This document shows, in pieces, positions 24,001-27,000 of a stretch of DNA of 40,940 bases (its first letter is position 1; each line of letters opens with the position of its first letter). The position numbers are program-made. The stretch spans positions 1-40,940 of the forward strand of contig JBKHHG010000002.1 of the NCBI GenBank assembly GCA_046539225.1. The letters are read 5' to 3'. This stretch comes from Candidatus Nanohaloarchaea archaeon. GTDB taxonomy: Archaea > Nanohalarchaeota > Nanosalinia > Nanosalinales > Nanosalinaceae.

Positions 24001-27000
24001 ATATCCGGTTCAAGGCCTGTCTCCATGCCTTTCTGGATAGCGGCCCCGACTTTGCTACGTTTACCGATCCAGCGGCGGTACTCCACGCCTTCGAATTCTA
24101 CAAGGTTCTCTCCATAGACCGAGCGCCCGGGGTCAGCGTTCCTGGTGTAAATCAGGCCTTCCCGGGAGAAAACACCGGGCTGGATCTCCTCCATTTCACT
24201 CACCTTTGAGTTCCTCGAACTTTTTCCGGGCTTCTTCCCTCAGTCTTTCTCCTTCATCTTTCCCGCTGTAGTTGTCGAGTCTTGCAGCCATAACAGCTTT
24301 GTTCGCCATGAAACGCGCCATCTTACCCCTGTTGTCAGCGAGAGGCCTTACAAACTCGTGTTCAAACAGTATACCATGTTTTGGCGGAGTGCCCTCGCCT
24401 CTCAAATACCTGAACAAGGCCTTTTCAGCTCCCAGCATCTGGACCGTTGAGGCCGGCTTCTTCGCCATCTCCTCGAGGCCTCCGCTGAGCGCAATCATTT
24501 TGGCCGCAAGAAAAGTACCGAGAAGCTTCGAAAGGCTCGGCATCTCCTGTTTCGCCAACTCCGCTATATAATCATCGAGTCTCTTCCTCAGTTCAAGATC
24601 AGATCCAAGGTTTTCCACAACCGATTTTAGGATCTCTGCCTCTTCGTCCGCAAGTTCCGAGCCTGTCGAGCCTGAAGCCAGTTGTTCAAAAGAGTCGATG
24701 GAAGATCTCTCCACCTCCGAGTCCAGAATCTTCACCAGATCCTCTATACCATCTATTTCTTCAACCAGCTCGGGAAAGTGAAGCGAGTACCAGTCCCTGA
24801 ACCTTTCCTCCTTCTCATCGACAGAGGCCTCAACCTTTTCACGCATCTTCACAGCCTTTATCAGGTGCTTCTCCCTGTCAACTTCCTGAAGCTCTTCCCG
24901 TGTGGCCTCCAGGGCCTCTTCAACCACATCCTCTGTCATACCTCAAGCCCCATCATCTTGATCTTCTTCCGGACTTTTTCCACGTCCCGGTCAAGGCCTT
25001 CAGCAATTTTCTCCGTGGAAGTAGTACCGTAGCTCTCAATTATGTAACGCTCCTCAGTCCTGGAGAACGGCACCCATTCCTCCTGCTGGAACTCTTTCTC
25101 GCCTTTCATAAACGCCTCCAGCTCCTCGTTGCTCATACTGTTCCTGTTGTTCTTCAGGTACTCGATCTCCTCACGGCTCCACTCGCCTTCAGACCTTTCA
25201 TCAGGCGACTCCATTGAGGCCTTCTCCATCCTCTCACGGTGAGTCAACTCATCATTCACAACCCTCTTGGCCTCTTCAACCAGTTCATCCTTCACATCCT
25301 CAGAATCCATACACAAAGATAGGCCTTGAAACTTCAAAAACCTCCCGGAAAAAATGCATTTAAGAAACTAACCAGACAACCACAAAACAGAGAGACATCG
25401 CGTATTTGCGGCGATTGAAAACTCTACGAGTTTTCAGCTTCGAGCAAATACCGTGTATTTGCGGCGATGGTCCAGCGGCTAAGACTCTGGCCTTCCAAGC
25501 CAGCAACCCGGGTTCAAATCCCGGTCGCCGCAAACAAGTTTTGCTCGGTTCCAGGGAGTTGAATCAGCAGAAAACTTGTTTTCAAGTTCAAATCCTGATA
25601 GCCGCAAAACTTCTGAAAGTTTTACCAGGATAATGTTTCCGGACAACAAGTAAACCCCATTGAACCGAAGATTTAAAAAGGCCTGTGAACAATGTAGAGA
25701 TATGACTCACGCAGCTCAGGCCTCGATCACAGCATCAGGGCACTCAGATAGAGCCAGCGTGAGGAATTTCTACAAGTATATATCCAATCTGTTTATCCTG
25801 TATAACTGATACAGGATAAGTAGGTTGGGACATCCTGGCCTGTTCCTCAACTCAGGGGAACCCGGGCAAGAGGGCTCAACCGAAAACCGCCGGACTTCTC
25901 ACCTCGACAAAGCTTTACACCCTTCCAAGGTGATAAAAAACAAGAAAACAGCTGTTACGCTGCCGGAAAAAGATTGGAAAGAATTAAAAATCCCTATTTT
26001 CTTTTCTATTTGATTTGATTCACGTCTTTGCCGCTGAAGGCGAGAAAAACTTTACGCTGCCGTTCTCCAGAGGCCTCCACTCTCCCTGAACCTTTTCATC
26101 GATTCTCAGGCCTTTCTCAAAGTTGAAGGCCCTGGAGTTGACCGCATCGAGCAGAACCTCTTCAAGCTCCTCGGCTTTGAACAGTGTTTCTTCCTTCCCC
26201 GCCCTTTGTACTCTCATCCTGTACATTGCATCAACTACTTACCCGGTGCAGGGTATTTAACTCGACCCTCGGCTTTCCAGAAGTCCGAAAAGTTCAGGTC
26301 TCGAAGACAACATCTCGATCGAAACTTGATTCAAATATAGACCTGACAGAGGCCTCAAGCCCATCGATATCGTCTTCAAGCCTCTCCTCTTCCTGCTTCA
26401 ACTCTTCTCTTCTCCTTTTTTCCTCTACAAGCTTTTCTTCGAGCTTTTCACGCTCCGATTCAAGCTCTTCAAGCCTTGAAGTCGCTTCATGGCCGTCAAC
26501 CCGAGCTTCAAGCTTTTCAACCTCCTGTTCAAGGCCTTCAATCTTCCCGGCTTTTTCCGAAAGGTTTTCCAGCTCTCCTGAGGCTTGCAAGAGCTTGCCT
26601 CTCTGAAGCTCCGAGATCTCGCCTTTCTCCTCGAGCTGTGGCAAAGCGGCCTCGACTTTCCCGGGTTTTTCAAGGATTTCATCGATCTTTTGATCTCTGA
26701 GAAGCTTTAAAGCTTCAATATTCTTCAGTGAAAGCTCTGAATGCTCCGCGCCGTATATAAGTTTCTTTAGGCCTCTCTCCATCTTCGACACGTTGATCTG
26801 AAGGCCTTCCCGTATGCTTTCTTTCTCCTGTTGAAGATTTTCTAACTCCTGCTGAAGCGATTTAAACTCTTCAAACTCTTCTCCGGTTTTAAATTCCTCG
26901 ATTTCATGTTTCTTGGCCTCTATATCCTTCTCTATACTCTCCAAATTAATTTTCTCGAGTTTGTCGTTGATTTCCTGAAGTCTGTCAAGTTTCTGGCTTC

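Follow-up and report, generated by a model that had tools for sequence, protein, structure and literature searches.

The window analysed here is a 40,940-nucleotide stretch of contig JBKHHG010000002.1 from a Candidatus Nanohaloarchaea archaeon of the family Nanosalinaceae. All features described below lie on its forward strand. A BRE-like purine run and a TATA box (TTTAAAAA, 25672-25679) occupy positions 25665-25679, recognized by sequence and by their spacing to the start codon, and are followed by a leaderless 35-codon ORF (25702-25809, ATG to TGA) whose frame is open across copies while its peptide is largely free. Helix P1 (25706-25763) begins just past the AUG, pairing 25706-25714 with 25755-25763 around a variable interior, and an A/U-rich linker of ca. 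31 nt (25764-25794), kept in length across copies, connects it to the stop-codon hairpin P2 (25795-25817), the loop of which consists of the last sense codon and the first two stop bases. A 3' arm (25819-25885) follows in which AGUA (25819-25822) faces GAA (25882-25884), with a covarying stem at 25823-25881 that pairs 25823-25829 with 25875-25881 and carries the apical loop CAACUCAG (25848-25855). The remainder is an A/C-rich, U-poor tail (25886-25990) with a Shine-Dalgarno-like AGGUGAU at 25928-25934, assigned by motif counts and 16S pairing, and a U-rich pyrimidine tract (25991-26012) that is likely a terminator, a similar tract ending most tails. Upstream lies a separate gene for tRNA-Gly(UCC) (25461-25532), flanked by degenerate copies of its own two ends.

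In 43 of 45 copies the first T of the TATA box is located exactly 30 nt 5' of the start codon, from which we infer that the transcript starts at this codon. The elements named in the survey's finding, namely TATA box, ATG at 25702, 35 codons and a TGA (25807-25809) within the P2 loop, are all present. Its length estimate of ca. 190 nt is too short since a tail of 100-260 nt and the U/C tract have to be counted, and the full RNA probably measures ca. 285-440 nt. The survey had not included the Shine-Dalgarno-like tail, the AGUA/GAA motif, a competing fold, a second RNA class, signs of lateral movement, published expression or any mechanism.

Conserved fold, open frame and tail

An alignment of 27 copies from 26 genomes was used to assess covariation. 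For the whole fold, 95.3% of cells are paired and 20 of 37 pairs have changed on both sides, with none of 500 shuffles scoring as high and slid controls reaching 27-45%, although the copies are related and these counts thus overstate independence. All nine P1 pairs have changed on both sides (87.7% of cells paired), P2 is paired in 99.5% of cells with compensatory changes in three of eight pairs, and the 3' arm helices reach 98.9% and 96.6%, likewise with compensatory pairs. The long covarying stem with a near-invariant loop reported by the survey thus holds up and corresponds to the arm at 25823-25881, its loop reading CAACUCAG in 42 of 45 copies and CAACUAAG in three. AGUAGG and CGAAA are invariant in all 27 BLAST-found copies, and we take the AGUA/GAA pairing to be a bulged-G motif (loop E, sarcin-ricin type). 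In 37 of 43 copies, a linker of 30-34 nt separates P1 from P2. A competing helix can form between the 3' end of this linker (25784-25791) and 25821-25828; it is 87% paired, lacks compensatory pairs, and is poorly formed or missing in L024, L082, L083 and the copies with a 60-nt insertion. In 35 of 43 copies, a fold lacking the arm helix has the lower energy or comes to within 2 kcal/mol. Pairing of the apical loop to 16S rRNA was not found, as UGAGUU is missing from 4/4 16S sequences.

In 43 of 45 copies no stop interrupts the frame between its ATG or GTG and the hairpin region, compared with ca. 0.26 per copy when the variable parts are shuffled. Length is 35 codons in 34 copies (range 30-55), and every length change, be it -3, -6, -15, +9 or +60 nt, is in frame. 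Both observations of the survey on this point, in-frame indels and stops in the other two frames, are reproduced, the alternative frames being open in only 2 of 39 and 6 of 39 copies. Further, codons 4-26 are only 44% identical among copies, in agreement with an almost free peptide encoded by a maintained frame. Aspartate and glutamate make up 2.1% of residues, so that the peptide is non-acidic within an acidic proteome. The stop codon is found exactly 12 nt 5' of AGUAGG in 39 of 45 copies and at 9-13 nt in four more. The survey's statement that the frame always ends in the hairpin loop is thus right for most copies but too absolute, as one copy carries a frameshift and another lacks a stop altogether. 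An upstream Shine-Dalgarno sequence is present in only 1 of 45 copies. No conserved run of rare or sensor codons and no tandem AGA, AGG, AUA or CCC was found in the 45 copies, and the peptide matched no NCBIfam family (best Atlas score 0.76). A read-through product was considered and rejected, since in six of the copies inspected the frame that continues past the stop breaks off within the arm, and the tail holds no conserved frame. Reading of the frame by ribosomes is what this pattern suggests.

The end of the peptide invites a reading in which the peptide itself is the product: an HbYX terminus that docks in or opens the 20S proteasome, or is delivered to it, while the RNA structure only controls synthesis. 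Of the 43 open copies, 41 have tyrosine as the penultimate residue; before it stands leucine in 39 and valine in one, giving the hydrophobic-Tyr-X ending in 40 of 43, and threonine in one more. The same ending occurs in only 6 of 402 long genes of this genome and in 0.93% of archaeal proteins (PMC11475706), copy L025 keeps the Tyr codon despite one broken pair, and 20S subunits are encoded in four of five genomes tested. Yet the Tyr-region codons form the 5' arm of P2, and RNA pairing thus suffices to explain their conservation. GUAU is kept even where the peptide ends in YKP (L080) or the frame has no stop (second copy of L081), L082 ends in IAG, and the remaining peptide is unconserved. Cdc48 (ending in YYA in four of five) and a PAN-like ATPase are also already encoded; an earlier argument from the absence of PAN (PF16450 in 0/5 genomes) was dropped once PAN-like ATPases were found. 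Taken together, we consider a peptide product improbable.

Within the tail, GGTGA occurs in 27 of 44 copies against 3.1 expected, one of the 27 falling inside the next gene. Predicted pairing of the tail to the 16S 3' end is -10.0 kcal/mol compared with -7.5 kcal/mol for shuffled tails, and 37 of 44 tails beat their own shuffles. The motif sits at set positions, 42 or about 130-147 nt 3' of CCGAAA, and matches the 16S end GGAUCACCUCCA, found in 4/4 genomes, as well as the Shine-Dalgarno motif that this genome uses for its genes (34 of 398). It is absent or degenerate in 17 of 44 copies. By eye, it often closes a weak hairpin of 3-4 bp with an upstream ACC(U) and may thus be structural. No consistent intramolecular partner was predicted. 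When an ORF was sought behind the motif, 11 of 44 copies showed a near-cognate start at a distance of 5-13 nt, opening a frame for a short peptide unrelated to the others, and this candidate was rejected. Viral 3' translation elements and calicivirus TURBS pair with small-subunit rRNA. They are similar in placing an rRNA-complementary element away from a start codon where it could hold small subunits, but theirs serve a viral protein ORF whereas the element described here is chromosomal, located 3' of a stop and orphan.

Published expression and known RNA classes

Reva 2023 (PMC10266531, Table S3) prints the 3' part of this RNA as an expressed unknown ncRNA at ca. 40,000 RPKM. The survey's descriptions of the RNA as new and as having no expression data were therefore both too strong. 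Compared by eye, the reverse complement of SVXNc_nc0004 contains the stop hairpin, AGUAGG, CAACUCAG and CCGAAA, and that of SVXNc_nc0003 the A/C-rich tail with GAGGUGAU. Both are highly expressed in mid-log culture (PMC10266531). There they are labeled as two separate, organism-specific H/ACA-like rancRNAs and differ from our assignment in lying on the opposite strand, without promoter or 5' frame. SRP RNA is likewise printed on the opposite strand in this table, as judged against 5/5 SRP loci. In the parts of PMC10266531 covered, neither the family nor its frame or covariation is described, and the literature searched, which included few subscription papers, held no other account of the RNA. 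A 266-nt nanohaloarchaeal sRNA, STRG.4577.1 (PMC7002113), may or may not be one of the RNAs treated here.

Our own search agreed with the survey in returning no Rfam family at the locus. tmRNA resembles this RNA in having a short frame that ends in a conserved stop-bearing helix (H5 of its mRNA-like domain), a length of 230-400 nt and an action on ribosomes (PMC3968760), and a stop codon carried on a conserved helix is indeed found here. The RNA differs in using its own AUG: the frame starts at ATG or GTG 30 nt past the TATA box, with no internal resume codon. Searching for a tRNA-like domain, ARAGORN calls no tmRNA in the window or in 39 related loci, and SmpB (PF01668) is encoded in none of five complete genomes, with 10 of 14 controls positive. 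No SRP RNA turned up in this genome (82% complete), a point in favor of a divergent SRP RNA, but RF01857 gave no match at the locus and separate SRP genes exist in all five complete genomes, four of which carry the RNA described here. For RNase P RNA, RF00373 likewise did not match the locus, the genome's best hit lying on contig C27 (35 bits, E 5e-9, below cut-off). A divergent tmRNA, SRP RNA or RNase P RNA is thus already largely refuted and hardly credible.

C/D and H/ACA guide RNAs were rejected based on box and family criteria on the transcribed strand, with box C UGAUGA in 0 of 45 copies and no search aimed specifically at H/ACA made; the published label (PMC10266531) was given to the opposite strand. 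Leader-peptide attenuators and translational switches are similar in that translation of a short 5' frame could toggle two folds. This class was rejected because no regulated gene lies in cis, the RNA ending in a terminator tract with a convergent or varying next gene, and no conserved sensor codon run exists. The arm could also act alone, be it as RNP scaffold or as catalyst, with translation of the 5' frame serving solely to keep the transcript from decay. Arm and loop are the most conserved part and are kept in the stopless second copy of L081; the fixed 35 codons, the 12-nt spacing between stop and arm and the tail motif are then left unexplained. As snoRNA families gave chance-level matches only and no ribozyme family matched, we also judge an arm-only function improbable.

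Distribution and a second RNA class

Our model detected the RNA, hereafter class I, in 27 of 49 other Nanosalinaceae genomes, the same number as given by the survey. No copy was found in 20 other genomes of the phylum, except for one match (E = 0.06) without the motifs. Tandem copies are seen in three genomes, as had been noted, and the claimed lack of fixed neighbors is borne out by 21 upstream-neighbor clusters among 27 loci. The next gene is on the opposite strand at this locus and in 7 of 19 loci. In the 39 other loci scanned, the RNA has no tRNA as its immediate neighbor. The class I tree conflicts with genera, and the RNA appears to relocate, with signs of lateral movement. Its own promoter and terminator tract, a frame kept without peptide conservation, in-frame length changes and varying neighbors support a stand-alone, probably ribosome-read RNA of Nanosalinaceae, and the survey's central proposal is thus sustained as a reading of sequence conservation. 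Well-assembled genomes such as G011, G007 and G012 lack the RNA, and 5/5 complete genomes encode Pelota, aRF1 and RqcH; the RNA is therefore not essential and fills no obvious gap. Four sequence-pattern matches in bacteria had no model support (8 of 28 loci run through the model) and were rejected.

Such mobility would suit a selfish or defensive RNA, i.e. an addiction or abortive-infection toxin that traps ribosomes, spreads laterally and is checked by its closed fold or an antitoxin. Besides the patchy and relocating distribution, the tandem arrays and the conflicting trees, tRNA-end duplications adjoin the copy at this locus, and CreT of haloarchaea, which sequesters a tRNA, is a precedent of a small RNA toxin acting by being translated and not through its peptide (PMC8501985). 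The CreT frame comprises six codons, two of them rare and consecutive, and its antitoxin is CRISPR-linked (PMC8501985); class I has 35 codons and no rare-codon pair, and CreT itself was rejected as an assignment. No cas, transposase or reverse transcriptase families were detected among 79 proteins flanking copies, a search that did not extend to distant cas loci, and the viral contigs searched gave no match. Given also the strong mid-log expression (PMC10266531) and the near-absence of upstream Shine-Dalgarno sequences, a toxin seems distinctly unlikely to us. With respect to a MITE or insertion sequence, relocation is evident, and in three regions checked no pair of repeats encloses the unit.

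Another RNA built along similar lines, hereafter class II, was found in 43 of 49 Nanosalinaceae genomes. It corresponds to the reverse complement of nc0001 in the published table (PMC10266531), and the present analysis corrects three of the published unknown ncRNAs as to strand and extent. A de novo genome scan for the same build returned only the class I locus, class II being missed owing to its longer TATA spacing. Both classes share a promoter, a near-leaderless short open frame (always open, 30 of 30, in class II), a 5' helix directly after the AUG, a stop at the foot of a structured arm and an A/C-rich tail with AGGUG. In contrast to class I, class II is near-universal in the family, syntenic, single-copy and genus-faithful, its arm is kink-turn-like (GAUGA/GA, compared with AGUA/GAA at the base of the class I arm), and its frames mostly end in glutamate, which again argues against a conserved HbYX product. 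Further, its Shine-Dalgarno sequence leads a conserved 37-39-residue protein (ORF2), while the class I tail motif has no ORF. ORF2 gave no convincing match in Pfam, PDB, NCBIfam or Atlas. A tmRNA-type resume for this second frame was rejected because codon 1 is AUG in 25 of 37 copies, codons 2-3 vary synonymously and a Shine-Dalgarno sequence lies upstream.

Class I could descend from the class II leader, as a mobile offshoot in which the small gene downstream was lost and whose present role would be in trans, as decoy for or regulator of the class II switch or of whichever protein binds it. The common order of parts from promoter to AGGUG tail, the contrast in synteny and genus-faithfulness, and four of nine weak matches of the class I model R1 falling on class II RNAs in the right orientation are consistent with this. 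Cross-matches are not significant in either direction (best on a class II RNA E 0.57; best overall E 0.13, off the RNA), and the arms differ. Common descent is thus no more than a candidate, and we regard the offshoot scenario as rather unlikely.

A possible ribosome-engaging function

We tentatively favor, short of even confidence, a translation-operated, ribosome-engaging RNA in which the working part is the RNA and the trigger is its being translated. Transcription from its own promoter would yield an RNA with its 5' end at or next to the AUG and its 3' end at the U-tract. A ribosome would load leaderless and read the filler frame, which is of near-fixed length and evidently under frame selection. 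At the stop codon it would melt the long hairpin holding GGUUGG, and the freed arm could then fold just beyond the point where mRNA enters the ribosome. When the stop codon occupies the A site, the first base of the P-site codon lies 15 nt before the start of the arm, which places the arm beyond the channel of 11 nt reported for bacterial ribosomes (PMC7282821). Arm and Shine-Dalgarno-like tail element might then hold or recapture small subunits that have no downstream ORF to start on, so that the net effect would be a ribosome sink or parking site damping or buffering translation. The fixed spacings (TATA to start 30 nt, P1 to P2 30-34 nt, stop to AGUAGG 12 nt) and the same kind of motif leading a real ORF in class II speak for this mechanism. 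Against it stand the competing helix without a compensatory pair, the tail motif that 17 of 44 copies lack or carry in degenerate form, the absence of the RNA from some well-assembled genomes, and the start of P1 at nucleotide 5, which should hinder leaderless loading.

Going further, nanohaloarchaea might manage their ribosomes by an RNA-based system in which class I is a hibernation or parking factor, with 35 filler codons followed by a bulged-G arm and an anti-Shine-Dalgarno clamp that stores ribosomes between hosts, and class II might by the same design couple a small non-AUG-initiated protein to ribosome state, an extension we hold to be doubtful. Protein hibernation factors are known, and if tail and arm hold ribosomes, class I would be their RNA counterpart. 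To our knowledge, few non-coding RNAs beyond the universal set have been described in DPANN archaea. A lineage with genomes of ca. 1 Mb keeps one or two abundant RNAs that are conserved for translatability instead of encoded content; in the one published table (PMC10266531) each of them reaches roughly 1/4 of the SRP RNA value. Class I may represent a kind of RNA device, so far undescribed, by which ribosomes are held or controlled in salt-loving symbiotic archaea. Cultured nanohaloarchaea and Haloferax genetics make direct testing possible. As a by-product, the conserved 37-39-residue protein of class II was found to start with AUC, AUU or AUA in about a third of copies.

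Promoter and reading frame of the class I RNA

The class I RNA of the window has a tRNA-Gly gene (25461-25532) on one side and a convergent gene of 403 codons on the other. It is preceded by a TATA box (25672-25679), and its ATG at 25702 opens 35 codons that end within a hairpin, at a TGA at 25807. The 226-nt class I stretch gave a folding z of -4.4. An alignment of 27 copies backs three elements: a helix right after the AUG (P1, 25706-25714/25755-25763), the stop hairpin (P2, 25795-25817) and a long arm (ca. 25819-25885). Across 37 named pairs, 95.3% of cells are paired and both sides have changed in 20 pairs, in good agreement with the covarying structure reported by the survey. 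None of 500 shuffles reached this level, a count not usable as a probability because the copies are related, and slid controls gave 27-45%. Its absence from Rfam likewise held, as nothing at the locus reached gathering level and all other matches were at chance, with E above 1.

Further counts were based on 45 copies: the 27 aligned ones, 13 of 17 metagenome loci (after removal of three duplicates and a truncated one) and five divergent copies. Some counts omit a frameshifted copy (44) or additionally a stopless one (43). In 43 of 45 copies the TATA box starts, with its first T, exactly 30 nt upstream of the start codon. An upstream Shine-Dalgarno was seen in one of the 45, a sequence pattern consistent with leaderless transcription. 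Reading in frame, the first stop falls 12 nt ahead of the AGUAGG motif in 39 of 45 copies and 9-13 nt ahead in four more. The survey's claim that the frame always stops in the hairpin loop therefore stands for these and fails for two copies, one that differs very little from an intact copy apart from a 1-nt deletion and one second copy without a stop. Stop codons are UGA (34), UAA (8) and UAG (1). In 34 copies the frame has 35 codons; nine others have 30, 33, 34, 37, 38 or 55. Frames of 55 codons result from a 60-nt two-hairpin in-frame insertion at the same ORF site, whose carriers (L064:1343-1600, L067:1343-1600 and L076:1343-1600) otherwise resemble different genera. Mean identity over codons 4 to 26 is 44%. 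A shuffled stretch is open with a probability of 0.26, and the other two frames are open in 2/39 and 6/39 copies; these 39 were chosen by stop position, so the fair open-frame count is 43/45. Asp and Glu make up 2.1% of peptide residues, unlike halophile protein. From these sequence features we infer that the frame is selected to be read while the peptide sequence mostly is not.

The peptide usually ends in Leu-Tyr-X, the HbYX motif of proteasome activators, and might itself be the product. We consider this improbable given that the Leu-Tyr-X codons are also the hairpin arm and that exceptional copies lose the peptide motif yet keep the RNA motif. PAN-like AAA ATPases were seen below curated cut-offs (L258:1372-2619, L259:1375-2655, L260:1042-2319); they are missed by the Pfam OB-domain model and end in MFA. 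Cdc48 ends in YYA, or YLG in the window's genome.

Arm, competing fold and tail

AGUAGG and CGAAA are invariant in 27/27 BLAST-found copies and lie opposite one another at the foot of a covarying helix (GGUUGGG/CUCAACC); AGUA opposite GAA corresponds to the consensus of a putative bulged-G motif (loop E, sarcin-ricin type). At the tip of the arm, the loop reads CAACUCAG in 42 of 45 copies and CAACUAAG in three. An arm-only RNP has a low probability in our view. In the computed best fold of the window copy, GGUUGG instead lengthens the stop hairpin to 20 pairs, and in 35/43 copies a structure that lacks the arm helix is lower in energy or no more than 2 kcal/mol away. The competing helix is 87% paired, shows zero compensatory pairs and is weak in several copies; hence a switch between arm and competing fold is at most plausible.

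When the stop codon occupies the A site, AGUA begins 15 nt past the first base of the P-site codon. As the bacterial mRNA channel holds 11 nt according to PMC7282821, AGUA would lie a few bases beyond it if this figure for the bacterial ribosome applies. A terminating ribosome would have opened P2 and the competing helix and left the arm intact. The P1-to-P2 linker measures 30-34 nt in 37/43 copies. This length is about one ribosome footprint.

Past CCGAAA, each copy continues for 100-260 nt of A/C-rich, U-poor sequence followed by a U/C tract. The transcript is therefore probably ca. 290-310 nt long in the window and 350-440 nt in most other copies, rather than the ca. 190 nt first proposed. 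GGTGA occurs in 27 of 44 tails compared with 3.1 expected, either 42 nt or ca. 130-147 nt past CCGAAA, one of the 27 being inside the next gene. The 16S rRNA 3' end is GGAUCACCUCCA in 4/4 genomes, and GGTGA is found ahead of 34 of 398 genes in the window's genome, mostly 9-16 nt before the ATG. The best computed tail-to-16S pairing averages -10.0 kcal/mol, and shuffles average -7.5 kcal/mol; in 37/44 tails the real sequence pairs better. Against a Shine-Dalgarno-like reading of the tail, the exact motif is missing in 17/44 and, judged by eye, is frequently paired with an upstream ACC(U) in a weak hairpin. The class I tails showed no conserved ORF behind the motif and no conserved frame.

Range, relocation and the class II RNA

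BLASTN of 50 family genomes gave strong class I matches in 26, the window's own among them. The covariance model found 32 copies (E below 1e-10). They are spread over 28 genomes, namely the window's own and 27 of 49 others of its family, which reproduces the earlier range; 20 other phylum genomes yielded a single match (E = 0.06) without the motifs. The RNA is missing from several well-assembled genomes, such as G011 (one contig) and G007 (98% complete). A metagenome pattern scan returned 17 stretches, all model-confirmed, and a scan of viral contigs returned no class I match. A looser pattern applied to 185,579 species genomes turned up 28 stretches, of which 23 carried a nanohaloarchaeal title, one was from an uncultured archaeon and four were bacterial; the model, run on these four and four archaeal controls, lent the bacterial ones no support. 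The tandem copies noted in the survey recur as arrays of two or three diverged copies (L080:1366-3297, L084:1578-2292, L081:4841-6547). The second L081 copy keeps the arm without a loop stop, clear TATA spacing or A/C-rich tail.

Class I flanks fall into 21 clusters among 27 and 19 among 26, confirming that the RNA has no fixed neighbours. Flanks of a second RNA of similar build (class II) share one cluster on 29/30 upstream and 28/28 downstream sides. In the class II tree, 9/9 genera stay whole. In that of class I, three of six are broken up, and well-supported branches force two origins for g1 and g18. Both trees rest on ca. 300 columns and different genome sets, with hidden paralogy possible. 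Such relocation might suggest a selfish or defensive RNA, which we regard as distinctly unlikely; 79 class I flanking proteins included no recurring partner, transposase, reverse transcriptase or cas family. On either side of the window's tRNA-Gly gene stand degenerate repeats of its 5' and 3' ends, separated by short palindromes (repeats and ends at 25402-25415, 25455-25468, 25512-25534 and 25586-25608), an arrangement resembling remnants of integration events. Ca. 760 nt upstream of the class I RNA lies an adjacent gene pair (23547-24939), putatively fibrillarin and Nop5 judging from the translations; it is not linked to the class I RNA in other genomes.

The class II RNA was traced from the reverse complement of nc0001 (39,987 RPKM in PMC10266531). 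In the window's genome it occupies the minus strand at C17:3625-3796, in the region G000:C17:3356-3830 (L111:1243-1715, minus). Its model finds one copy in 43/49 family genomes (one weak) and in 1/20 others, with neighbours syntenic in the family: an exonuclease-like gene on one side and a convergent 158-codon gene on the other. The class II RNA has a promoter, and its AUG, spanned by a helix, lies within a few bases of the probable start. The frame of 33-42 codons is open in 30/30 loci and stops at the base of a kink-turn-like arm in which AUGA and GACC are invariant; a pseudoknot is likely. In the A/C-rich tail, AGGUG leads a conserved acidic frame of 37-39 residues (44/49 genomes; L111:1246-1356, minus) that varies synonymously. 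Its starts, of 37, are AUG (25), AUC (7), AUU (3) and AUA (1, with an AUU one codon earlier); the non-AUG starts, about a third, have tighter Shine-Dalgarno spacing. The small protein starts with M-D/N-A-N and ends in a hydrophobic A-T-A/T-L, resembling a tmRNA tag in looks only. A search of 1.84 billion representatives gave 41 relatives of the small protein, unnamed or hypothetical wherever looked up, and no family or structure matched; the RNA itself had no Rfam match above chance. Cross-searches of the class I and class II models gave no significant match, so that shared ancestry is a lead only. That the class I RNA is a trans-acting offshoot of class II, as the similar build might suggest, is unlikely.

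Published expression and possible roles

Contrary to the survey's statement that expression data are lacking, Reva et al. 2023 (PMC10266531) tabulate five expressed ncRNAs, among them a homologous piece, nc0004 (140 nt, 39,795 RPKM). Its reverse complement contains the stop hairpin with UAG, AGUAGG, CAACUCAG and CCGAAA; nc0003 (15,317 RPKM), reversed likewise, gives an A/C-rich tail containing GAGGUGAU. L027 holds stretches matching nc0004 and then nc0003, in that order (by eye; a sequence match only). SRP RNA reaches 173,757 RPKM in the same table and, by comparison with five SRP loci, is shown in antisense too. Of the five ncRNAs in Table S3, at least four, SRP RNA included, appear printed as reverse complements, and section 18 makes no mention of a stranded library. 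What is on record is thus expression of a homologous locus, with strand, 5' end and joining of nc0004 and nc0003 outside it. In the window, G-U pairs, promoter and terminator place the class I RNA on the plus strand.

The observations comprise the spacing of the promoter, the open frame, helices that covary, constant distances, the tail motif, relocation and the published expression of a homologous locus. We tentatively read the class I RNA as a ribosome sink. A ribosome would load leaderlessly on the AUG, translation would drive refolding of the RNA, and arm and tail may then capture small subunits.

A known universal RNA is highly improbable. There was no tmRNA call and no SmpB, and Pelota, aRF1 and RqcH occur in 5/5 complete genomes; archaeal tmRNA hits are treated as possible misbinning by Nawrocki et al. 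2025 (PMC11915505). CreT features are absent from the class I RNA, and as an attenuator it has no gene to attenuate. Our literature search found neither family nor architecture described, a fragment having been listed earlier (PMC10266531), and the RNA, whose function is putative, fitted none of the known classes with which it could be compared. SRP RNA and RNase P RNA are both located elsewhere in the genomes; in the window's genome, the RNase P RNA candidate (L031:390-653, on G000:C27) is short and divergent, with 264 nt and 35 bits, below the Rfam cut-off.
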